IMG/VR virus record: IMGVR_UViG_3300037483_000076 | Location: 31,563 to 95,562 of that record | DNA: 64,000 nt | Reading direction: 5' to 3' (one strand) | From: a virus | Shown: piece after piece, positions 1-46,500 of the stretch | How the letters are laid out: every line of letters begins with the position of its first letter | Numbering within the stretch: the stretch's first letter is position 1 | Made by a program: the position numbers and the translations under genes | The notes under the pieces: model-generated | The model's input: the letters and a program-made list of their open reading frames with translations, nothing else | Told to the model about the DNA's origin: nothing | Database searches by the model: none

Positions 1-2
1 CT

Positions 3-2348
3 TACGCTAGCATTCCTCTTGGAACAATAACTAACAAATTAAAAACTTTATCTAGTAGTATAACTCCTATTGAAGAAACTAAACCTCTCTGGCAATTAGG
101 TGCTGTAGCACAAGCTAGAATTAAGTATAAATACTCTGGTGGTAAAGGAGGGGTAGGTCCAGAATCTCTTAACAACGTACATCATATCATGTGTCAAGTT
201 GCTGGAGTATCCTTTAACTATAATGTAGGATTAGGTAAAGTTGATGAAGATGGTAATACATCTCTACATGATATAGATAGTTTACCAGAAGAAGATGGTC
301 AAATAATAGCTATATCAGACTGGTTATCAGCTTTGATTGATGCTCACGTTGATATCGCAAAAGACCCTTATATTATTAACTTAAATGTTGTAAGTGATAC
401 ATATGATGTAGCTAACTTATTAGTTCGTATAGGTATGGGATCTAAAACATTTCAATTCTTACCACAACCTATTCTTAAAGAATTAGTTCACGAACTTGAT
501 AGTGAAAAAGGTGAGATAAAAGTATCTAGTGTAACTAAACCTATAGATAAAATTAGAGAGAAATATGAGAAATTAGCTGGGAAAACTAGAGTAGGAAGTG
601 GTTATAATCCTTTCAATGATGATTTAGTTGGATTAATTACTCTGGATAAATCAGAGAGGAATGAGATGTGGCATGCTAAACAATTAGCTATACTTAATTT
701 ATTTGATACTCTAGATAAAGGTGCTGGCAAACAGTTAAATGGACTAGTAATGTCTTCTAGGGTTGATACAAAGAAATATGCTACTGATTTAATATCTAAT
801 GAATTATACATCCAGGCAATGAAGGATATGTATAAGGAGGATAACTTCACTAATTTAGATAAGCTATTAGGATTTGATCCAGAAAATGAACTATCTACAC
901 AATCTGATTATAGTACATTCTTAGGAACATATTATAATAATGGTCCTGCAATGTTAAGACAATTATTTGGTAATAAGAGTATTACTGGCACTAAGTCATT
1001 TCAAACCGCTCTCTATAGAATAGGTAATTTAGCTGGTATAACTAAGTTTACTAAAGATAGGAAGGGTAAGTTAAATAGGATTGGTGATGAAATATACTCA
1101 GCGTTAATGGGTAAGTTCTTTACAGAAGAAATAGGATTAACTGAGGATGATGTAAAAACTATCATGACTAGTGTCCCAGCTTTTGTAAGAGATGTAAAGA
1201 CTAAACATCCTGAATTATCTGAGAATGTATTAATGGAGTCACTTGTAAAAGGATTAGAAACTATTGATGATCTAACATTTACTGGTATACCATCTATCAA
1301 ATCTGACGATAATAGAGAAGATTATATGTTTGCTTGGAAAGAATTGCTACAATCTAATAATAAAGATGTAGTAAGTTTTGCTAAGAGATTATATGTATAT
1401 TCATATTATACATCTGGATACAGACAAGGACTATTTAGTTTATTTCAATATGTACCTGTTGATCTACATATGAAGTTTCAAATGAATGACTTAGAAGTTA
1501 GTTTTAAAGACTATGCTGCTAAATTACTTGAAACTATGAGTGATGAAGAAAAAGGTGGAATTGAATTAGGTGACGTAGCTAATACTATATTTAAGAATAA
1601 TTGGATGAATACATCCTTTACTCCTAGAGTATACGAAAGAGCCATAAGTGCTCCTATTACTATTGGTAAAGATAAGGATAAACAAACTATTGGATCTACT
1701 ATATTTACTAGAAAGAAGAATCCTAAGACAGGTAAATGGGAAGTTAATGTAGCTAAAGTTGGGAATAATGCAGATGGTAATCCTATTTATCAGCCCACTA
1801 TACTGTATCAAATTGATAAAGATAATAGTATTCTTATGGAATACATAGGATTTATTGATGATAAGTGGCAAACTCCTGTATATAAAGCTATTCAGAAATT
1901 AGGTTATAATAATAAAGGTAGGAGAATTGTTGAATATGGGTTCACTAAATCTATAATTAAACGTAATAATAGTATTAAAGAAATTGATGATAGTAAATTT
2001 ATGAGTTTAATAAAAGATAAGAGTGCTTATAGTGACTTTGTATATATACCTATGGAAAGTAGGGTAGTTGTAGAAATGCCTATTATAGGCTCACCACAAG
2101 AAGATACTACTGAAAAGACTTATACTGTCACTGAAGATAGATCGTTGAATGTAGGGGCTGAAAATAGCCTAGAATCAAGTCCTATTACTCAAGAACAACT
2201 AGATGCTATTAATGAACAATTAAAGAATTCAAGTCCATTTAATACTGTAGGGACAACTGTTGAAATAGATTACTTCACTCCTATTACAATGGATGAATGG
2301 AATAGTATGACAAAAGATGAACAAGATAACCTATTAAACTGCTTATAA
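3..2348 (+). CDS. C-terminal part of a giant crAss-like virion-packaged RNA polymerase-like protein (5'-truncated by the window)
   Basis: Frame is open from base 3 (YASIPLGT...GGKGGVGPESLNNVHHIMCQ), so the ATG at 189 is internal. LSALIDAHVDIAKDPYI resembles the (A)VD..K motif of crAss-type/QDE-1-like RNAPs. The catalytic DxDxD is not in the window. Confidence 0.65.
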   Translation, partial: YASIPLGTITNKLKTLSSSITPIEETKPLWQLGAVAQARIKYKYSGGKGGVGPESLNNVHHIMCQVAGVSFNYNVGLGKVDEDGNTSLHDIDSLPEEDGQIIAISDWLSALIDAHVDIAKDPYIINLNVVSDTYDVANLLVRIGMGSKTFQFLPQPILKELVHELDSEKGEIKVSSVTKPIDKIREKYEKLAGKTRVGSGYNPFNDDLVGLITLDKSERNEMWHAKQLAILNLFDTLDKGAGKQLNGLVMSSRVDTKKYATDLISNELYIQAMKDMYKEDNFTNLDKLLGFDPENELSTQSDYSTFLGTYYNNGPAMLRQLFGNKSITGTKSFQTALYRIGNLAGITKFTKDRKGKLNRIGDEIYSALMGKFFTEEIGLTEDDVKTIMTSVPAFVRDVKTKHPELSENVLMESLVKGLETIDDLTFTGIPSIKSDDNREDYMFAWKELLQSNNKDVVSFAKRLYVYSYYTSGYRQGLFSLFQYVPVDLHMKFQMNDLEVSFKDYAAKLLETMSDEEKGGIELGDVANTIFKNNWMNTSFTPRVYERAISAPITIGKDKDKQTIGSTIFTRKKNPKTGKWEVNVAKVGNNADGNPIYQPTILYQIDKDNSILMEYIGFIDDKWQTPVYKAIQKLGYNNKGRRIVEYGFTKSIIKRNNSIKEIDDSKFMSLIKDKSAYSDFVYIPMESRVVVEMPIIGSPQEDTTEKTYTVTEDRSLNVGAENSLESSPITQEQLDAINEQLKNSSPFNTVGTTVEIDYFTPITMDEWNSMTKDEQDNLLNCL

Positions 2349-2349
2349 T

Positions 2350-5300
2350 ATGAACAAATGTGTTAACAAATCTTCAAAAGAGTTCATTGAACTAGTTAGA
2401 CAATCTGGTTTAAATCCAGCTATATTAGCAGCTAAGATGGGTGCATACATGACATCCAAAGATACTGATGAGTGGCCTAGTTTGGAAGAATTAGGTATTG
2501 CTCCAGCTATTAACCCTATTAGTCTAGAAGAAGTATTAGAAAAATATCCTGAATTAACAGAAACTACTACTGAGGAAGAGACTCTTATTTCAGATTTATC
2601 TAATCCAGATAGACTTACAGCTCTTAAAGAACAGATGATTAAGTCATTAGAGGCTAGATATGAAAGAAATAGACGATTTAAGAATGCTTCTAGAGATGAT
2701 CTTATTAAACAAGAAGAACTTATTAAAAAGATTAATGAGTTAGAGACTAAACAATCTATTGCTTTATTTATAGAACAAGCTAGTCAGTCTACTAATAAAG
2801 TATTTAATACTTGGAAAGATCAATATAGAGATAAAGTAAATGCTATAATTAGTGGGAAATCTGATAAATCCCTTAAAGATGTACTTAAGCCAGGGTTATT
2901 ATACATATGGAAAGATTATATATCTACATATGATGATATGGATGACTATGTTAATTATATGACAGAAAACGGGTTAATTGACATAGATTCCGAAGAACAT
3001 AAGAAACTATTACTAGTAAGTAAGAAAAAAGATACTATTAAGTCATTATACACTACATATGGGCAACAGATATTAGCTGAGGAATTAACTCCTTATTATA
3101 ATGAGATTTATAAGAAGTTTGAGAATAACAAACGTAAAGTATATAGGTCATTACCAGAAGTTGAAAAAGCTAAATATACTGAAGAGCAGTATATAGATAT
3201 GCAAAAAGATTTAGAAGCCACTAATCTTAGACAACAGACTATTAATCTATTACAAGGAGAGCTTATTACAGCATCTAAAGATATAGGTTATATGACTAGA
3301 TGGTTTGCTAGTGCATTAGAAACTAGTGACCCTATATTTGCAGCATTAGTAGAGAAGTTTCAGTTTAAAGAAATAGAACGTAGGACTGAGAAGATATTAC
3401 CTATGCGAGAAAAGTTAGTTCATTCTCTTCGTAGATTGGAAGAATATGCTAAAAGTAAAACTAACTTTAAACAGTTATATAATTCTATCTTAGAAAAAGA
3501 TGAGAAAGGTAATTTAACTGGTAAACATGTTGATCGTTTTGGTAGTGCCTTCTGGAGTGCATATGATAAATTTAAAGCAGATACTGCTGCTAATATTAAA
3601 TTAGACGATGATGAGAGGGGTAAGGAGATTAAAGCTTGGTTAAATAAGAACGCTCCTCTTAGACGTACAGAGTTTAATACAGATAAGTGGATTAATATAG
3701 ATGCTCTTCATAAAGAAGGAGTGATATCTGATGAAGAATTAGCTGTATTAGAAGAGAATGAAATGACATATGATTTCCAATCTTATTGGGATCTAAAGGA
3801 ATCTGGACGATTAAGTGCTGAAACATCTAAAATTCTATCTGATTGGCAATTTGATAATATATGGAACTACAGAGATCCAGATGCTAAATGGTCTAGTAAA
3901 AATAAGTCATGGTATGAGTTTAAACGATTACCAAAACATGATTCAACAGTAGAATTATTTGATTTATTACTGGAGATTAAGAACGAAGCAAATGAGTTAC
4001 TTCCTCCTTCAATGAGATTAAAACATGGAGATCTACCAAATATACTTGCTAGTAATGAGGAAAGATTGGTAGATGGAGATGTAATGGGAGCATTTAAGAA
4101 TGCTATAGCTAGACAACTTGATGTTCTAGTCGACGATGATACTAGAGGTAATCAACCTTTAGAGGATGCCCAAGGTAATAAGATACATATGGTTCCTATC
4201 TATTATACTGGTAAAACTAATACTAAAGTAGGTGATGAATGGCAATATGATCCGACTAAACAATCTTATGATTTAGCTAGTATATTCTTTAGATATTACG
4301 ATATGGCTACTCTACATAATATCAGAAATGAGATGAAAGTAGAAGCTGAAATGGCTAAGTATTTTGTTCAAAATAGAGATATAACTTTAATTGATGATAA
4401 AGGTAATCCTGTTAAGAAAACAAAAGGTCAAGTAACTAAAGGTACTAATCAAACTCAAGAAAAACTTAAGAATAGAGTAGCTGAACAATTAACTGATTGG
4501 ATAGAAGAAAATATATATGGTATTAAAGAATTAGGATTAGGTCAAGCTAATATCCTTGGATTAAAGGTTGATAATGCTAAGGCAGCTAAATTACTAAGTA
4601 AGTATACATCACTTAGTGTAATGGCATTAAACTTTAAAACTGCCGTATCCAACGTAATGATGGGTGAGATGCAACAAATAGGTGAGTCGTTTGCTGGTCA
4701 ACATATGACAAAGAAATCACTTCATAAAGCTACTATAATGTATGATAAGAATTTTGCTGGAATAGTTGCTGATACTACATCTAGACTTCCTAAAAATATA
4801 GTTTCTTTATTAGATGAAGAATTTCAAATTAGTATGGAATCATTAGATCCTAAGTTTAAAGATAGTAATAGAATTAAACAAGTTGCTAAAACTAGTTCCT
4901 TATATGTAATGCTTAGAATGGGTGATCACTGGATGAAAAATAGATTCTTCTTAGGTATGTTAAATGAGAAGAAAGCTTATGATAAGAATGGAGTAGAATT
5001 AGGTAGTATCCTTGATATGTATACTGCTAAAGATAGTAAGTTAATACTAGATTCTAGAGTTGATTTAGATAAGTCTAAGTGGAATAAGGAAGATAAGTAT
5101 AGATTTACTATGAAAGTACAAGGAGTACTATCTGGTATACATCAAGAAATATCTCCATTAGGTAGAGCTGCTGCTGAACGTAATGCTCTATTAGGATTAG
5201 CTTTATTATTCCGTAAATTCATTGCACCAGGAGTAGCACGTAGATATAAGAAAAAATCTTATGTAGAACGAGTAGGTGATTACACTGAAGGATATTATAG

Positions 5301-5799
5301 AACTACAGGTAGATTCTTTAATAACATAAGAAAAGAACTTAAGATTTACAAATTTGCTGTGTTATCAGAAAATTGGAGTAAGTTAACTAAAGAAGAGAAG
5401 TCTAATATAATTCGTACAGCTAATGATGTAGCTTTCTTAGCAATAGCTATAGCAATGACTGTGTTACTATCTGGTGGAGACGATGATGACGATAATGCTT
5501 GGATTACAGATTTTACTATTTATCAGATGACACGATTCCAAACAGAAATCTTATTCTTTACACCAAAAATTGATGAAACAATGACATTACTTAGATCACC
5601 ATTTGCATCACTGCAAGTAGTAGAAAATATAGGTAAGTTATTATATCAATTATCTGATAATCCAACTGAAGTATATGTGAGAGGACCTTGGAAGGGACGA
5701 CTTAAAATAGAGAAACCATTCTTTAGTTTAATACCAGTTATGAAAGGATTTTATTCAACTAGAGATATTAAAGAACAAACTAAGTTCTTAAACCAATAA
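2350..5799 (+). CDS. Large virion (ejection/cargo-like) protein
   Basis: 1149 aa helical ORF right after the RNAP-like gene, with a C-terminal hydrophobic segment (VAFLAIAIAMTVLL) followed by a poly-D run. Position is typical of crAss giant virion proteins. Confidence 0.55.
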   Translation: MNKCVNKSSKEFIELVRQSGLNPAILAAKMGAYMTSKDTDEWPSLEELGIAPAINPISLEEVLEKYPELTETTTEEETLISDLSNPDRLTALKEQMIKSLEARYERNRRFKNASRDDLIKQEELIKKINELETKQSIALFIEQASQSTNKVFNTWKDQYRDKVNAIISGKSDKSLKDVLKPGLLYIWKDYISTYDDMDDYVNYMTENGLIDIDSEEHKKLLLVSKKKDTIKSLYTTYGQQILAEELTPYYNEIYKKFENNKRKVYRSLPEVEKAKYTEEQYIDMQKDLEATNLRQQTINLLQGELITASKDIGYMTRWFASALETSDPIFAALVEKFQFKEIERRTEKILPMREKLVHSLRRLEEYAKSKTNFKQLYNSILEKDEKGNLTGKHVDRFGSAFWSAYDKFKADTAANIKLDDDERGKEIKAWLNKNAPLRRTEFNTDKWINIDALHKEGVISDEELAVLEENEMTYDFQSYWDLKESGRLSAETSKILSDWQFDNIWNYRDPDAKWSSKNKSWYEFKRLPKHDSTVELFDLLLEIKNEANELLPPSMRLKHGDLPNILASNEERLVDGDVMGAFKNAIARQLDVLVDDDTRGNQPLEDAQGNKIHMVPIYYTGKTNTKVGDEWQYDPTKQSYDLASIFFRYYDMATLHNIRNEMKVEAEMAKYFVQNRDITLIDDKGNPVKKTKGQVTKGTNQTQEKLKNRVAEQLTDWIEENIYGIKELGLGQANILGLKVDNAKAAKLLSKYTSLSVMALNFKTAVSNVMMGEMQQIGESFAGQHMTKKSLHKATIMYDKNFAGIVADTTSRLPKNIVSLLDEEFQISMESLDPKFKDSNRIKQVAKTSSLYVMLRMGDHWMKNRFFLGMLNEKKAYDKNGVELGSILDMYTAKDSKLILDSRVDLDKSKWNKEDKYRFTMKVQGVLSGIHQEISPLGRAAAERNALLGLALLFRKFIAPGVARRYKKKSYVERVGDYTEGYYRTTGRFFNNIRKELKIYKFAVLSENWSKLTKEEKSNIIRTANDVAFLAIAIAMTVLLSGGDDDDDNAWITDFTIYQMTRFQTEILFFTPKIDETMTLLRSPFASLQVVENIGKLLYQLSDNPTEVYVRGPWKGRLKIEKPFFSLIPVMKGFYSTRDIKEQTKFLNQ

Positions 5800-5819
5800 G
5801 ACAAACTTTATAAAATGAT

Positions 5820-5863: not shown

Positions 5864-6997
5864 TTAATCAAACTTTAATAAGAAATCTGGATTAATTACT
5901 TTAAATGAAAGTAATTTCTTACCATTCTCAATACACCTAACTACTATACCTTCTCTAGGAATATCTGCTAATACAGATTTACCTTTACTAAATTCAACTA
6001 GTTCTTGAACTGTTGAACCTAATTCTGAAAGTTTACATTTTTTAATTAAAGGTACTCTTTCTAATTTATTATCTCCACAAAATTTAGTAATTTCATCATA
6101 GTCATAAAAATAATTTGTAACATAGTCAATAATATTAAATACCCACATCTTTGTAGTATTTAGTTTATACTTATTTCCCTGTACTTGAGGAGCACCTTGC
6201 TCACCTTGGATTGTTAATGAGTTATATTTTTCCCTAATTAATAGTTTCTCAATGCTATATTTATTAGCAATTTGTTGGTATAAACTATTCTTACTATTGT
6301 TAACAAAGTTTCTACTACATACTATAAATTTAAACTTCTTTGGTAAGAATTTACCAATTATTGGTATAGTATTAGGAATCATTTTACCAGTAAACGTAAC
6401 ACTCTGGTAATCTATTTTCTCAGTAACATATACTTCATTATCTGCAAATTGGTGTAATACTTGAGGAATATTTTGAATACGTTCTTCATCAGTTTTACTT
6501 ACCCAATATGGAAATCCAGACTTTTGTTTCTTAGTAAGAAATAATTTTCTAAACCAAGAATATCTCATCATAAACTTCTTAAGTCTATTCTTTTCTAACT
6601 TAATCTTCTCTTCTTCTCTCTGTAATTCAGATTGTTCAAAAGGAGATAAGTACTTAGTTATACCTAATTCTTCAGTTACATCAGATCCTATAGAACATTT
6701 ATCGTTTCTTTTTACTGTCCAATCTTTAGGTAATGATAGGATTAAACCTTGACTAACTTGTCCTCTAAGTTTAATAGTTTTAACTCTGAATTTCCTATCT
6801 CTAAGGAATTCGTATTCTGGTTTTTCAGGCATTACAGAATCTACTTCTACATAGATTACTTTGTCACCTACTTTAAAACCATCTGTTTTTGCTACAACAC
6901 ATTGCCAACCAAGTACAGTAGCTACTTCAATCTTATCAGCTCCTTCAATTGGAGATAAACTAAGTATCTGTTCAATATGTGCTAATTTTCTATCCAT
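5864..6997 (-). CDS. RNA ligase, DRB0094/Rnl5-like family (N-terminal OB domain plus nucleotidyltransferase)
   Basis: N-terminal RKLA..I....PIEGAD.IE, GW..VV.K and VKTIKLRGQVSQGL; KTDEERIQN; motif I TEKIDY; QGE; EGIVVR; SFKVINPDFLL. Confidence 0.9.
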   Translation of the reverse strand: MDRKLAHIEQILSLSPIEGADKIEVATVLGWQCVVAKTDGFKVGDKVIYVEVDSVMPEKPEYEFLRDRKFRVKTIKLRGQVSQGLILSLPKDWTVKRNDKCSIGSDVTEELGITKYLSPFEQSELQREEEKIKLEKNRLKKFMMRYSWFRKLFLTKKQKSGFPYWVSKTDEERIQNIPQVLHQFADNEVYVTEKIDYQSVTFTGKMIPNTIPIIGKFLPKKFKFIVCSRNFVNNSKNSLYQQIANKYSIEKLLIREKYNSLTIQGEQGAPQVQGNKYKLNTTKMWVFNIIDYVTNYFYDYDEITKFCGDNKLERVPLIKKCKLSELGSTVQELVEFSKGKSVLADIPREGIVVRCIENGKKLLSFKVINPDFLLKFD

Positions 6998-33821: not shown

Positions 33822-33843
33822 ATTAATTAGATTAAAGATAAAA

Positions 33844-35260
33844 AAGTAAGCAGTCCTTTGACAGCAGAAGCCAATTATTGGTCGTTTCTGAGAATTCTGT
33901 AACTATTGCTAATTTTGTAATTCTACTGCTTATTTGTAATATACGAATGAGCTGTCTATTTTTTTGTATAGACTTACTATTTTGTTGTTTACGATATTTA
34001 ATCGTTATGAACTCACTATATCGCTATGATCTTCGAAATCTGTTACTTATGAGATAACTAGCTCAAGTGTTACGGTATTATTAGCCATATCCGTAGGCCA
34101 CTTATCTTCTAATTATATATCTCCATATTTCACTATGAAGCTGATTAATCCATGTACAACCTTACAGTTGTGTTGCGACTAATCAATAATTATTGATAAA
34201 TACAAGAAAGTAAATTTGTTATTTTTGGTAATATTGTTTGGGAAGGTATTTCTGTAACTCAGAATGAATTACATGGAGATAATGTCTCATATACATTGGA
34301 TTGTATAGGACGTAAATATCGACCTTAATTTACACATTTCATTGTATATTGAATTCTATACAACTTCCTTTCAACCTGTCGTAATTGGAATATTCGTACA
34401 GTATGTGACTCCAGTTCATTTTCTTAAGTACTGGTAACAATCAGGTGTTTATACCCATTTCCCAGGGACACCACAAACTGAATTATCTTTTAATACACCA
34501 GTGATTTGACACTGAATCTGAGACCACCTATTTACGATAGGCTCCACGTTCCACGTAGATGTATACTAAAATTACTTCTATAAAATAACCGACTTCTTCT
34601 ACCGCATTTGTTTGTCAAAGGGTTTTACTCTAAAGAACACCTACATTTTTATGTTAATTTGTCTTCGTTAGCCTTTACACAACCAGTTGTCGGGAATCTC
34701 ACCCTATCGCTAATCATAATGTTATACAAGGAGTATTATAAACAAATAGTATTAGTATTTGAATTATGTACTAGAAGGAGTTTATCATAGAAATATGGAT
34801 AACTTCTATAATAAACTCGTTAATGTAAGATAGTCAAACTGTGAACGAATCACTTTTCTCATTACTGATAGTTTGAACTGAAGTACACTATCTTCTAATA
34901 ATAGGTCTTTATAATACGAAGGATCTGCTATAATCCTGACGACTTTAGAGTAATAACTTAGCGCTATGAGTTACCTCGTAGTTATTATTGTTCTCTAGTG
35001 AGTTTAATTGTAAGTTGTGTTGTGTACATTTTAGGATGTACGTTCTCCTTTATTTGTAATAAAAGTTTTAATCTAGGCATGTTAAATTCAGTACGCCCTA
35101 TGGTATTTAAAAATATGTAATAAATACCACCATACATTTGTTCATTATTATTGGACAAGCCTACACGATATTAGGTACATTGAACCAATTCGCTAATACC
35201 GCTTTATTGCAATTTAGACCTCCTCTATTAATTAAAATAGAATCTCCTCCTTACAGTAAA
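33844..35260. ncRNA. Large ORF-free structured region (about 1.4 kb); candidate giant ncRNA or ncRNA cluster
   Basis: No credible ORF; many local and nested long-range inverted repeats (see findings). Confidence 0.55.
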
Positions 35261-35268
35261 GAATTATC

Positions 35269-35361
35269 TTACGATGTTGAATTTGGAGGATTTTTATGTT
35301 CATATAATATATGATATACTATCCAACAAAGTATAAATATTATAGCAATACCATGTATCAT
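35269..35361 (-). CDS. 30-aa single-TM peptide (not in ORF track)
   Basis: MIHGIAIIFILCWIVYHILYEHKNPPNSTS; ATG lies 1 nt after the upstream stop. Confidence 0.5.
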   Translation of the reverse strand: MIHGIAIIFILCWIVYHILYEHKNPPNSTS

Positions 35362-35362
35362 A

Positions 35363-35497
35363 CTACATTTCCTCCCAAGCTTCAAATTTTAATATCCTTA
35401 GTTGTTTAATTGTGAACATACTAGTTAATATTGATGTAACTGTAGTTCCCTGTGCTTTATAGAGCTTTCCATCAAATTTAAAGATGAATATTTTCAT
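35363..35497 (-). CDS. 44-aa hypothetical protein (not in ORF track)
   Basis: MKIFIFKFDGKLYKAQG...; overlaps the end of the upstream gene. Confidence 0.5.
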   Translation of the reverse strand: MKIFIFKFDGKLYKAQGTTVTSILTSMFTIKQLRILKFEAWEEM

Positions 35498-36890
35498 AAT
35501 ATCTTCTGATTATACGGTTATAACTATCTCGTTGAAAATCACCTATAGGAATAATTTCATCTATATATTCAAAACTGCTAGTTTTTGAATTGATGATGAT
35601 CCTATATTGTTCAAGAGTTAAAATGAATCTATCATATGATAATCCTAGGTAATCTAGGACATCTTGATCAACATTGATCAAAAGAATTAACTTATTATCA
35701 TTTGATATTAATAGACAAGATTCTATGGTATTAATGTGGTTAAATACATTTTCTACGTCATTTGACATTATATAACCAAATTTTCCATGTACAACACTTT
35801 CTTTTCTACCACTAAAAAATAGATGTTGATTAAAATCGCTTGAGATATTTATCTGTAGATTATCTTCTTCAAATAAACTAGATAAAGGTAATTCTTCACT
35901 TAGTAGTCTACCAACGGATCCTTTTAGAAATCTTGCAGGATGTTCATAAGCAGTTATACCACATTCTTCAACTCTGCCAAAAGTTGTAGTATAAGGTATT
36001 TTTAGTTTATTTAACATATCCTCTATCTTTTGTGGTAGTGTAGAGTTCAGGATAATCAATTGTTGTAACTTAGGAAATAACTTCTTTATTTTTGATTTAA
36101 GATAGTATTTTCTAAATATCCACAATTTTAGATCCTTTAGAATGTTATTTTTGAAATCTTCAACATTCTCTATGTATTTCTTATAGAGAAGCATAAAATC
36201 AAATGCTGTAAGTATTACAACTTCTGGTTCATGCTCCTCTAACTCATGTCTTAATCCATAACTATCTTTGTTTTGAGGAATTACTATTGTTATTCCACAA
36301 GTTAGTGGTAGTAATACAGAGATTAGATAGTTATAGGTAAATTCTACCTGTCCTAAGTAAGTAGTACTCTCATCAAATACTTTATTCCTTCCAAGTAATA
36401 TCATGGTATTTAATATTTTATCATGATCTATAGTTACTGGAATTAACTTATTAGGAGATATTACTGATATGGATGTATTTGTTTCAAATATGTCCCCATC
36501 TTTTATTGGAAACTTTGTAAAGATCTTTATATTAATTACATTACATAAAAAGTAATAATCATCATATTGTTGATCAGTTAATACTAACTGTATATTCCAA
36601 CGAGGAACTGATACAATTAGATCTTCAATATCTGACTTTATACTAAATAATACTAATTTATGCCTACTAAATAGTATGGCAAAGAATGTAATTATCCAAT
36701 CAACACTGTTTTCAGCAACTAGTAAAATTCTAATAGGCGATTTATACGCTTTGTTTAGAATTTCAGCAAGTGCCCTGGATCTTTTAAAAATATATCTGTA
36801 TGTATAACTTTTACTATTATATATTACAAAGATGTTTTCTAAATAGAGTTCAAAGAACCCTATAATTTTTTCAATCAATTTGCTTTTCAT
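35478..36890 (-). CDS. Degenerate AMP-binding (long-chain acyl-CoA synthetase-like) protein
   Basis: YTY, ENSVDWI..FFA, FGRVEECG, GSVGR, GRKE, IESCLL match the ANL fold; the canonical TSGTTGxPKG loop is absent. Confidence 0.7.
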   Translation of the reverse strand: MKSKLIEKIIGFFELYLENIFVIYNSKSYTYRYIFKRSRALAEILNKAYKSPIRILLVAENSVDWIITFFAILFSRHKLVLFSIKSDIEDLIVSVPRWNIQLVLTDQQYDDYYFLCNVINIKIFTKFPIKDGDIFETNTSISVISPNKLIPVTIDHDKILNTMILLGRNKVFDESTTYLGQVEFTYNYLISVLLPLTCGITIVIPQNKDSYGLRHELEEHEPEVVILTAFDFMLLYKKYIENVEDFKNNILKDLKLWIFRKYYLKSKIKKLFPKLQQLIILNSTLPQKIEDMLNKLKIPYTTTFGRVEECGITAYEHPARFLKGSVGRLLSEELPLSSLFEEDNLQINISSDFNQHLFFSGRKESVVHGKFGYIMSNDVENVFNHINTIESCLLISNDNKLILLINVDQDVLDYLGLSYDRFILTLEQYRIIINSKTSSFEYIDEIIPIGDFQRDSYNRIIRRYYENIHL

Positions 36891-41718: not shown

Positions 41719-41979
41719 TTAATTAATACTAGCGTACTCAAAAGTTGTTGCTTTGTTGAATCGACGAACAGCTTTGTATTTCTCAAGTACTGTTACTTCA
41801 CGTAACTGTTCTGAATATACAGGAGATGTACAACCATTTTTACATAATTGTATCTTGTAATTGTTATCTCCGCTGTCTTCAGCAATTTTACAAATTGTAC
41901 CTTTATCAGCATATGAACAACCACATGATGAAATACCTACTGTTAAGATAGCTAACTGGCCTACTTTAAATTTACTCAT
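41719..41979 (-). CDS. Hypothetical SH3-like protein
   Basis: Starts MSKFKVGQ. Confidence 0.6.
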   Translation of the reverse strand: MSKFKVGQLAILTVGISSCGCSYADKGTICKIAEDSGDNNYKIQLCKNGCTSPVYSEQLREVTVLEKYKAVRRFNKATTFEYASIN

Positions 41980-42049
41980 TTTTCTTTGATTAAATGGTTA
42001 TTATTAAGAAAATATATATATTGTTTTGATTAATATATAGTTAATAAGA

Positions 42050-43185
42050 CAATGATTGATAATCTGACTCTAGTTAATTATGTTCATACCAGATAGTACA
42101 ATTTGGATTCACTTGTAGTATCAATCATTGATAATTATCAAATTTCTGAATATTACTACACATATCAATAGTGTAGTCGCACAATTAGTTATATTAATAT
42201 GGTTACAAAAGATTTATATACAGCAATAGAATGTCATTAACTGTAATACTTTCTTGACTACCCGCATTCTCAGCTACCATATCTAGTCCTTTTTTTATAA
42301 CTATACGATCAAATATTTCTATTTGAAAGGCTAAATAGATTATCCTTATCTTTTAAACTGATTATAATCTAATATTTCATGTATTAGAGCAATTATACAT
42401 TATTCAGTTTATTTAGCTGCCAATACAAATATTACATATGTTGAAGATATTGATAGTTATCTCAATTCATATTTGTATTATATTATCACCTTTTATTTAC
42501 GGTGTAAGTATCAACAGGGTTTTTGTCTATTAGACACGGTCATATTATATTGTAGATATTTAATCACCCCAAACGTTTATCTTAGTTTTATTGTAATAAT
42601 AAGAAAATTTCAATGTAATATAGATTAGAGGAATATCTTCTAAGTCCTACATATTACATCGGGAACTTTGCTATCCCATGTAGCCTTATCGCCACATTAC
42701 CTCTTTATACTAATGATAAGATTAGTATTTATTAGATATGATGAAGGTTATTACTTAATTGTTTCAGTATCAATACTACCTACAAGATTAACTAGTCTTA
42801 CAACTGTATGGATCTCACAATGATCTCTATTGCACTCTGCATTATGTTAGAAAAGGGTTTACCCCTTATTAGTTTTAACTAACTCGGACTTGTGACCGTC
42901 ATTACTATTATTAATTATCTATTCCAGTGTCTAGGTTTCTGTTTATAATTAATTTTCATGGTTGCATTACTATAAGATAGTTCTGACAAAGGGTATACAG
43001 CCCCTTTATAAGAACGAGATTTTAATCAACGTTTCTAGAATGTTGATACTCATATATCATCGTACACTTTTGCCCGTGCACGAGACTTTTTTATTATATA
43101 TAATATATCGCAATAGTCGCTAAACTCTAATGAGATATAGATTAGTCCTATCTAATTTTCAGTAGTAGCTTCTGTATCAACTATT
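42050..43185. ncRNA. Large ORF-free structured region (about 1.1 kb); candidate ncRNA or ncRNA cluster
   Basis: No ORF of 60 aa or more in six frames; dense hairpins. Confidence 0.55.
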
Positions 43186-43191
43186 TACATA

Positions 43192-43887
43192 CTAATAAGA
43201 TATTCTTAATTTCTTGTGAAGTTGTTTAACAATCTGATTACATTTAATAATCCATAAAATAATGGTTTCGTAGTCAAATGTCATTGGAGCAATACGGAAT
43301 TCTATGCTATGTAGATATTGATAACGTATGTTTATCCAAGCATGTTTGTCTTCTAATCCAATTCTTTTATAATTAAAAGTACCTGGATATTTACCAAATA
43401 TTTCTTCTAATGTGTATAGATATGGATTAAGATAGTTTGTAACTATATCTACATTATTACCTTTTAATAGATAATCATTGTTGATTATTTTATTAGCATC
43501 AATGTGTAAATGTATCCCACTACCTGGATTTAATGTACAATATTTCTTCATGTCTTGAAGTATTTTGTATAACCCAGATGCTTGGGAATAATTACGTATT
43601 GATATGCGATGTTCACAGACTTCTTTTGATTGTAGTCTTTGTTTATCATCTGAATAATCGAATATATCGTATTTATCTGCTATTTTAATGCTATAGTCAC
43701 GTTGTTTAGCATTTAAAATACGACTTAGAGAAGTGATGCATTCTATTTCAATAGATGATCTAAATGGGATCATATTGTATAGAATACCTTTAGTTATCTT
43801 AGGATTAAATGATTTATCCTTTAATAATTTAGAGATTAACAAGGGAGCACTTAGTAAGCATTCCCTTGTATACTGTGATTTGTTCAT
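43192..43887 (-). CDS. Putative amidoligase (COOH-NH2 ligase-like)
   Basis: SIEIE, GSGIHLHID, SIEFR. Confidence 0.7.
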   Translation of the reverse strand: MNKSQYTRECLLSAPLLISKLLKDKSFNPKITKGILYNMIPFRSSIEIECITSLSRILNAKQRDYSIKIADKYDIFDYSDDKQRLQSKEVCEHRISIRNYSQASGLYKILQDMKKYCTLNPGSGIHLHIDANKIINNDYLLKGNNVDIVTNYLNPYLYTLEEIFGKYPGTFNYKRIGLEDKHAWINIRYQYLHSIEFRIAPMTFDYETIILWIIKCNQIVKQLHKKLRISY

Positions 43888-46065: not shown

Positions 46066-46214
46066 ATACAATGTAAATGTATGAGTATAATTGCTATAGT
46101 TGTCATAAGAGTTATATAATTAGGTTAATAATATATTATGTGAGTGTGTTATGTGAGCTTTAGCGAACGTATTCGCAGAATACTGCTATATAAGTGTGGA
46201 CAATAATGAGAAAA

Positions 46215-46306
46215 TAGAGGATATTATGACATAGATAATTGACTGGCAGTCAGTATCACACAACCACAATCTCATGTAATTGCTACACATTCATAATAAT
46301 CCTCTA
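46215..46306 (-). ncRNA. Stem-closed RNA candidate
   Basis: tagaggatattatga/tcataataatcctcta (1-nt bulge); U-run on minus. Confidence 0.45.
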
Positions 46307-46500
46307 AATCATCAATTACTAACCATGTTCAAACTATAATTCGAGGCAACGTACCCTGGGGGACGGCGCAGTGAGGGGGTTTATCAACCCTATTAAATGT
46401 TAATACTAATCTCTTAATGAGATTAATGCACAATTGTTCCCTAATCGGTCACAATTCTATGTAGCAATGTCATGAAGACTAAAACAAAAGGGATGCACTG

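Follow-up and report, generated by a model that had tools for sequence, protein, structure and literature searches.

The minus strand at ~42515-42152 of the DNA analysed here belongs to a family of structured RNAs that had not been described before. Comparison across sequences shows a conserved, strand-specific, multi-helix structure that is distributed among crAss-like phages and has no match in Rfam. The tract around this core RNA is composite, as the evidence below supports: it joins a twister-like ribozyme, a clade-specific middle domain, the core of ~350 nt and a 3′ hairpin element. Our window, meaning the whole 64,000-nt stretch under analysis, comprises bases 31563-95562 of a 95.5-kb IMG/VR virus record (IMGVR_UViG_3300037483_000076) with an estimated completeness of 91%. 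Coordinates are those of the window, and minus-strand elements are listed 5′ to 3′.

The large terminase of the window matches phrog_6681, the portal matches phrog_6547, and the terminase shares 50-56% identity with its counterparts in human-gut Crassvirales (family Suoliviridae); judged by these protein matches, the source virus is a crAss-like phage. G+C content is ~30% genome-wide, and that of the tract is similar to the rest of the genome. Gene direction is rightward over 1-5800, turns leftward at 5864 and stays so to ~46000, and from 47000 on is rightward once more. The tract belongs to the leftward genes, with the divergent junction 3-4 kb away, and both the strand and GC-skew switch (~46-47 kb) and the skew minimum (~44-46 kb) fall outside it. 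Its limits and flanks are as follows.

41980-43191, minus strand: ORF-free tract of 1212 nt, between the 86-aa gene and the amidoligase-like gene
41719-41979, minus strand: 86-aa ORF of the ORF list, downstream flank
43192-43887, minus strand: 231-aa ORF, upstream flank, whose homologues carry amidoligase_2 (PF12224)

Only three ORF-free tracts of at least 300 nt occur in the 95.5-kb genome, at 33822-35477, 41980-43191 and 46067-46500. The first, the 34-kb region, is split in two by one short ORF and contains neither a copy of the core RNA nor an Rfam match. An initial sequence-only reading had seen no similarity between this region and the tract, in keeping with which our core model finds no second copy in the genome. 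The third, a 434-nt gap near the divergent operon junction, lies by the cumulative GC-skew minimum and suits an origin or early promoters better than 41980-43191 does. Among the neighbouring genes, an AMP-binding enzyme is encoded at 35478-36890, in the same early region as the 231-aa amidoligase-like gene, and the two may form a small-molecule or peptide ligation module. A 713-aa protein encoded on the minus strand at 38431-40572 matches nothing in Pfam or PHROG; L002 and L009 also keep it downstream of the RNA.

That the tract holds no ORF of 60 aa or more was confirmed in every frame under code 11, code 4 and TAG=Q. The minus strand of 41980-43191 has no ORF of even 30 aa, and the plus strand has five, of 31-53 aa. 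Alternative codes (code 4, TAG=Q, TAA=Q) were rejected, as they open no gene and frames with TAA as sense are riddled with stops. ARAGORN found no tRNA in the window. A sigma-70 promoter scan gave 20 sites against 18.9 expected and is therefore uninformative; the only terminator-like site from that scan lies on the plus strand. Because the conserved blocks described below are single copy in the genome, we rejected a reading of them as a repeated promoter or operator. A conserved AT-rich word 5′ of helix P0 was likewise considered as a -10 box and rejected, since the outer portion of that helix accounts for it better.

Six helices had been picked out from the sequence alone, and all are present where they were placed.

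42050/42119: 12 bp, outer stem of the P6 element
42155/42177: 7 bp, P5 of the core
42422/42469: 11 bp, P1 region of the core
42613/42659: 9 bp, in the middle domain
42853-67 and 42988-43006: two aaggg/ccctt hairpins
43025/43047: hairpin H1

Judged by folding energy, the hairpin density that had been described for the tract is at chance level: sliding 150-nt windows across the gap gave MFE z-scores mostly between 0 and -2, the flanking genes are equally low, and the core as a whole has z = -1.4. Only 42950-43099 on the minus strand stands out, with the lowest local value in the gap (z = -5). As thermodynamics does not set the tract apart, the helices had to be judged against relatives, and there they proved real, since compensatory changes keep them intact.

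Relatives were collected by protein-guided scans with the 231-aa gene over IMG/VR and JGI metagenomes; WIN denotes the window sequence and L-numbers the loci of relatives. They gave loci in which an ORF-free gap of 314-1422 nt comes after the same gene. These gaps share colinear islands of 85-97% identity (blastn, MAFFT), well above the 59-74% of the flanking protein. The two best islands were then used in pattern scans, and filtering with a covariance model (R1) provided a census of the core family, which has at least 23 copies in at least 22 contigs, WIN included.

First set of carriers: WIN, L002, L003, L009, L017, L037, L045
Further carriers: L069, L073, L083 (two copies), L084, L090, L099, L116
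Further carriers: L177, L184 (partial), L185, L186, L187, L188, L196
L212: 6.8-kb contig binned in a Spirochaetaceae MAG (GTDB)

The elements of the core in the window are listed below.

~42515-42152, minus strand: core RNA, ~350 nt, with helices P0-P5 within 42504-42155
42504-01/42490-87, minus strand: P0, CACC/GGUG
42480-70/42431-21, minus strand: P1, 11 bp, with a variable interior that often contains CCUCUAUC
42420-18 with 42181-79, minus strand: junction-closing pairs, GCA with UGC, 240 nt apart
42417-10/42337-30, minus strand: P2, followed by CCUU
42326-09, minus strand: P3, with a GAAA loop at 42319-16, followed by GUCGUA
42303-296/42193-86, minus strand: P4, with a 108-nt insert in WIN, followed by AUUGUGC
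42177-71/42161-55, minus strand: P5, with a 9-nt loop at 42170-62

P0 and P1, separated by a conserved GAUAAUAU run, are thus followed by a four-way junction from which P2, P3 and P4 radiate, and then by P5. The junction is closed by the GCA of a GGCA that follows P1, pairing with the distant UGC. Junction nucleotides are conserved, and P2 and P4 hold inserts of variable length, the interior of P4 ranging from a tetraloop to the 108 nt of WIN. The P3 loop is GAAA in 21 of 21 copies, and P5 occurs as about ten different stem sequences around a nearly invariant loop, UAUUGAUAY. Six members carry inside P1 a UAUCAA word complementary to the P5 loop, with which it could pair; in two members with a different loop this pairing is uncompensated. 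The loop and the word give a hint of a loop-loop tertiary contact or of a shared ligand. Single-sequence MFE folding of the WIN core recovers P0, P1, P3, P4 and P5.

Covariation, which had been proposed as the way to check the tract, was far above slid and shuffled controls. Our starting point was A4, a plain MAFFT alignment of seven copies that was not fitted to the model; RNAalifold gave six helices from it, and pairs were counted on it. Across P1-P5, both sides change in 26 of 44 pairs, and 95.3% of 299 cells pair. When the 3′ partners are slid by 1-3 columns, 2-7 such pairs remain and 28-47% of cells pair, and none of 500 shuffles reaches the observed values. Model R1 and alignments of 15 and 21 copies add to this. 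With 19 distinct copies aligned to R1, each of the 22 pairs of P3-P5 shows compensatory change; 96.3% of cells pair, and sliding lowers this to 28-45%. Because alignments A7 and A8 were fitted to model R1, they lean toward its structure, although the distance from the controls is very large; A4 and the following test have no such bias. For P0-P2, strands were taken at fixed offsets from sequence anchors without optimisation. P0, P1 and P2 pair at 97%, 81% and 88%, compared with 81%, 64% and 65% when partners are shuffled between sequences, and both sides change at 4 of 4, 10 of 11 and 7 of 8 positions, respectively.

Several features assign the RNA to one strand. Paired cells contain 19 G.U against 3 A.C combinations, the tetraloop would read UUUC on the opposite strand, and all copies lie in ORF-free gaps and are oriented like the flanking ORFs. 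By these sequence criteria the RNA strand is the minus strand, the same as that of the flanking genes. The earlier suggestion of RNA in the tract, whether another large molecule or a series of small ones, is supported by conservation and covariation over 22 contigs, strand-specific G.U pairs and a GNRA loop.

The core was compared with known RNA classes. Rfam 15 gave no match to it at gathering level in the window or in the loci of 17 relatives, nor at relaxed E-values (≤5 for the window gap; ≤1 for four loci), and none of the GOLLD, ROOL, OLE and raiA covariance models matches it. When we considered group I and group II introns, there was no Rfam intron match, the flanks were unrelated intergenic DNA and no ORF was split.

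The carriers are environmental crAss-like phages, with source samples attributed to landfill and wetland. In five of the five carrier records checked, the terminase is of the crAss type and 31-49% identical to that of the window, so the element is spread over deeply diverged phages. In each of these five records 9-15 kb separate the core from the terminase gene, which is on the opposite strand, and this conserved position argues for vertical descent. It is single copy in four of them, the exception being the tandem pair in the L083 genome. There, copies at 791-949 and 194-298 on the minus strand, ~650 nt apart, have identical 5′ halves (P0-P1) and diverged 3′ halves, and between them lies a P6 element, in a region with a predicted 63-aa ORF that we take to be spurious. 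Flanking genes are conserved in the near clade only. In four loci (L045, L073, L099, L185) tRNA genes stand directly beside the core, and those directly upstream of it at L073:3916-4020 (minus strand) and L185:10991-11097 (plus strand) are unusually long matches of 105-107 nt, which may carry introns or long inserts. No RVT_1 match, and so no reverse transcriptase, was detected in five carrier genomes, three of them at least 90% complete; the gene that a retron, DRT or DGR-template RNA would call for is thus missing from these genomes.

Searches beyond these collections added one locus. Pattern scans of GTDB returned 0 and 73 matches (L197-L269), mostly from Nostoc; of 23 loci tested with the model (all non-cyanobacterial ones and three cyanobacterial ones), the sole pass was L212, which as a small contig in a MAG bin gives no evidence of a host. 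The three cyanobacterial loci tested do not fit the RNA model. A 19-base A-block pattern matches dozens of Nostoc genomes by coincidence, presumably through a conserved Nostoc sequence. Among GenBank phages, blastn found no match to the tract, and a model search of five gut Suoliviridae genomes gave no convincing match. One match there, in cr6_1 (26.6 bits), was rejected: neither P4 nor the junction is present, and an endonuclease gene is annotated across the same stretch.

Upstream of the core lies a second conserved structure, with the following predicted elements.

42976-42827, minus strand: candidate twister-like ribozyme, ~450 nt 5′ to the core; type-P1 order, P3 and P5 present
42975-70/42832-27, minus strand: P1, five pairs and one mismatch in WIN
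between U42969 and A42968, minus strand: predicted cleavage site, U↓AA
42966-64/42840-38, minus strand: P2, UGC/GCA
42953-45/42918-10, minus strand: P3, 9 bp in WIN, recovered by MFE folding
42898-96/42887-85, minus strand: P4, CGG/CCG, with the loop at 42895-88
42883-79/42850-46, minus strand: P5, GUUAG/CUAAC
42837-33, minus strand: GAGUG

Read 5′ to 3′, the order is P1, U↓AA, UGC (P2), AAC (L2), P3, AAUGA, P4 with the loop UCACAAGU, P5, AUAAU, GCA (P2′), GAGUG and the 3′ strand of P1. The only Rfam signal in the tract is Twister-P5, which scores 18.1 bits in WIN and 18.8 bits in L017, on the same conserved block, and does not reach the gathering score of 37.6. We attribute the low score to inserts (~60 nt in P3, ~40-90 nt in P5) and to circular permutation of the sole model that fires. 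The three blocks common to WIN, L017 and L037 correspond to parts of the printed Twister-P5 consensus, namely GCAGAGgG, UAAUGCgGC and Aaga-cCGG-UCcCAAGC-CCGg.

In a comparison of WIN with the consensus, the essential stems P1, P2 and P4 are present in canonical order. P1 is mismatched in each of WIN, L017 and L037, and P4 has only three or four Watson-Crick pairs, its fourth pair being G.U in L037. The P3 stems of L017, L037 and L002 differ yet stay complementary, and P5 of L037 reads UAUUACC/GGUAAUA. In known twisters, pseudoknot T1 joins the loop CCC with L1, and T2 joins the last two loop nucleotides with the conserved GC of L2 (PMC5408937). The predicted counterparts here are CAC of the loop with the GUG of GAGUG, and GU of the loop with the AC of L2; read from the sequence, both pseudoknots can form, and pairing is retained through changes on either side relative to the consensus. 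Twisters have about ten nearly invariant nucleotides in L1 and L4, among them the A of the U-A cleavage site and the active-site G. UAA, AAUG, U.C.CAAG and GAG.G are kept here, and three consensus positions are changed, each with compensation. Since each change from the consensus comes with a fitting change in the pairing partner, we read 42976-42827 as a divergent twister; on the three or four sequences compared, it is probably a ribozyme of this class with the cleavage site predicted above. In L002, two of the blocks are kept and the third is degenerate, which looks like a relic. A further self-cleaving motif, a RAGATH-1 hammerhead with 56.4 bits, at the Rfam gathering score, occurs near the core at L009:4750-4813 (plus strand), a short way 5′ of the amidoligase-like gene. 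Self-cleaving ribozymes are thus a recurrent feature of this part of the phage genomes.

The remaining elements of the tract vary in their distribution.

43047-43025 and 43006-42988, minus strand: hairpins H1 and H2, in the 3′ UTR of the upstream gene, with a conserved linker
42600-42826, minus strand: middle domain, between ribozyme and core, in WIN, L017 and L037 only
42697-42676, minus strand: middle-domain hairpin
42677-74/42664-61, minus strand: middle-domain helix, GGGA/UCCC
42659-51/42621-13, minus strand: middle-domain helix, the one at 42613/42659 above
42510-42598, minus strand: stretch conserved between WIN and L003 only (91%, blastn)
42050-42130, minus strand: P6 element, 81 nt, a 12-bp outer stem around an inner AUCUGG/UCAGAU

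WIN, L003, L002 and L017 have the H1/H2 linker in common; their stems differ, those of L017 being unrelated in sequence. In the middle domain, inspection by eye of the three sequences revealed colinear blocks and at least three helices whose differing stems are still complementary. P6 is found also in L017, where its outer stem shows a compensatory change from G-C to A-U, and in the distant L083; a looser copy in L073 is 2.2 kb from the core. L003 lacks the twister and the middle domain, and L009 has the core only.

In our proposed explanation, which we consider likely, the tract is a minus-strand RNA-gene region in which a member of the core family forms part of a ribozyme-freed RNA of ~0.9 kb acting in trans. 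The tract would be transcribed from the minus strand within a leftward early or middle operon, and the twister would cut the transcript at its predicted site between U42969 and A42968. Cleavage would free the upstream mRNA, whose end would be formed by hairpins H1 and H2, and would leave a defined 5′-OH on a ~0.9-kb downstream RNA containing the ribozyme body, the middle domain, the core and P6. As is assumed for the phage-borne GOLLD and ROOL RNAs, the released molecule would work in trans in the infected cell, either as folded RNA alone or within an RNA-protein particle. We lean, somewhat less firmly, toward a broader proposal: that the core is a new RNA class inherited vertically across deeply diverged crAss-like phages, released by a divergent twister or by tRNA processing, and serving in host takeover as a trans-acting ribozyme or as the RNA subunit of a particle. 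If this is true, the Crassvirales lineage would have its first conserved non-coding RNA gene.

The main rival, to which we give a small share of the probability, holds that the core is not a free RNA but a cis-acting leader of the downstream genes, riboswitch-like or controlling antitermination or translation. The core is always on the strand of the downstream genes, and in five loci (L009, L045, L090, L177, L185) the next ORF starts 7-40 nt past P5 with no terminator between, so that there the core would be a 5′ leader unless it is processed. Terminator-type GC-rich hairpins with a U-run, 48-101 nt after P5 in L002, L003, L116 and L186, could act as an expression platform where present; terminators in this position also disfavour a leader, and the P5 hairpin at the 3′ end is constant, not alternative. 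A search for a riboswitch or gene-specific leader found no constant, functionally related downstream partner: beyond the near clade the proteins encoded downstream are unrelated, the next gene may be anywhere from 7 to more than 900 nt away, and in L099 the next genes are tRNAs. It is very improbable that the tract holds no large RNA and merely strings together small elements of unrelated kinds, such as 3′ UTR hairpins, promoters and the relic of a ribozyme, with the core as one ~350-nt RNA. The modular build seen in L003 and L009, and the separate P6 of L073, would suit such an array, which departs from the best explanation only in transcript processing and leaves the core family standing either way.

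A replication origin or other folded single-stranded DNA site, the alternative initially offered for the tract, is highly improbable. A non-coding tract 3-4 kb from a divergent junction might suggest one, as might the gene that follows the core in L045, which encodes a DnaA C-terminal HTH domain, and hairpins in single-stranded DNA would covary too. There are no iterons, tandem repeats, direct-repeat arrays or DnaA-box arrays, however, and the strand and skew switch lies elsewhere, near the gap at 46067-46500. The GNRA tetraloop, the 19:3 G.U excess, a four-way junction with long inserts and the ribozyme and tRNA neighbours are, moreover, marks of RNA. Least probable, to the point of being nearly negligible, is that the tract encodes short peptides, which had been named as a finding that would overturn an RNA reading, or that its hairpins are chance products of AT-rich DNA. 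The five short plus-strand ORFs and the ordinary MFE z-scores would fit this reading, but the minus strand has none of that length, indels between relatives are not in threes, helices and loops are conserved where frames are not, and the covariation far exceeds the controls.

CrAss-like phages rank with the most abundant viruses known; their known hosts are Bacteroidota, and to our knowledge their early regions are almost wholly unannotated. In the literature searched we found no description of a conserved non-coding RNA for these phages. Over 40 base pairs of the element described here covary, its four-way junction is defined, its genomic position is conserved and it has a ribozyme as neighbour. 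It is therefore well suited to structural study (SHAPE, cryo-EM) and to genetics in any cultured carrier, and its covariance model lets annotators label such 'empty' tracts.

Among known systems, the closest comparison is with GOLLD and ROOL, large ornate RNAs of bacteria and their phages (PMC12286853). Like them, the core is a non-coding RNA of many helices borne by phages; its junctions are conserved, its peripheral inserts vary, and tRNA genes are frequent neighbours. It differs in having no Rfam match to either, even at E ≤5, in its smaller conserved core (~250-370 nt), and in its carriers, which are crAss-like phages rather than the Firmicutes or Actinobacteria lineages of GOLLD and ROOL. 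RAGATH motifs and other RNAs from the vicinity of twister and hammerhead ribozymes resemble it as structured RNAs beside self-cleaving ribozymes in phage DNA, as with the hammerhead of L009. Among the RAGATH families that Rfam 15 includes, none matches the core. With the put RNAs of HK022 and other antitermination leaders it would share the character of a cis-transcribed structured RNA in a phage early operon, with terminators after some members; unlike the put RNAs, the core is many times larger and has a four-way junction.

The upstream ribozyme candidate is best compared with the twister class (Rfam clan CL00120; reviewed in PMC5408937). It shares with twister the order P1, U↓AA, P2, L2, P3, 'AAUG', P4 with an 8-nt loop, P5, P2′, 'GAG.G' and P1′, and it keeps the cleavage-site adenine, the first G of GAGNG and the potential to form both pseudoknots. 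It departs from twister in its long P3 and P5, in a score half of the Rfam gathering score, and in having UCACAAGU in the loop for UCcCAAGC, GAGUG for GAGgG and AAC in L2 for gGC. Because this variant alters nearly invariant nucleotides together with their pseudoknot partners, it would provide a natural test of which twister positions are held by pairing and which by chemistry.
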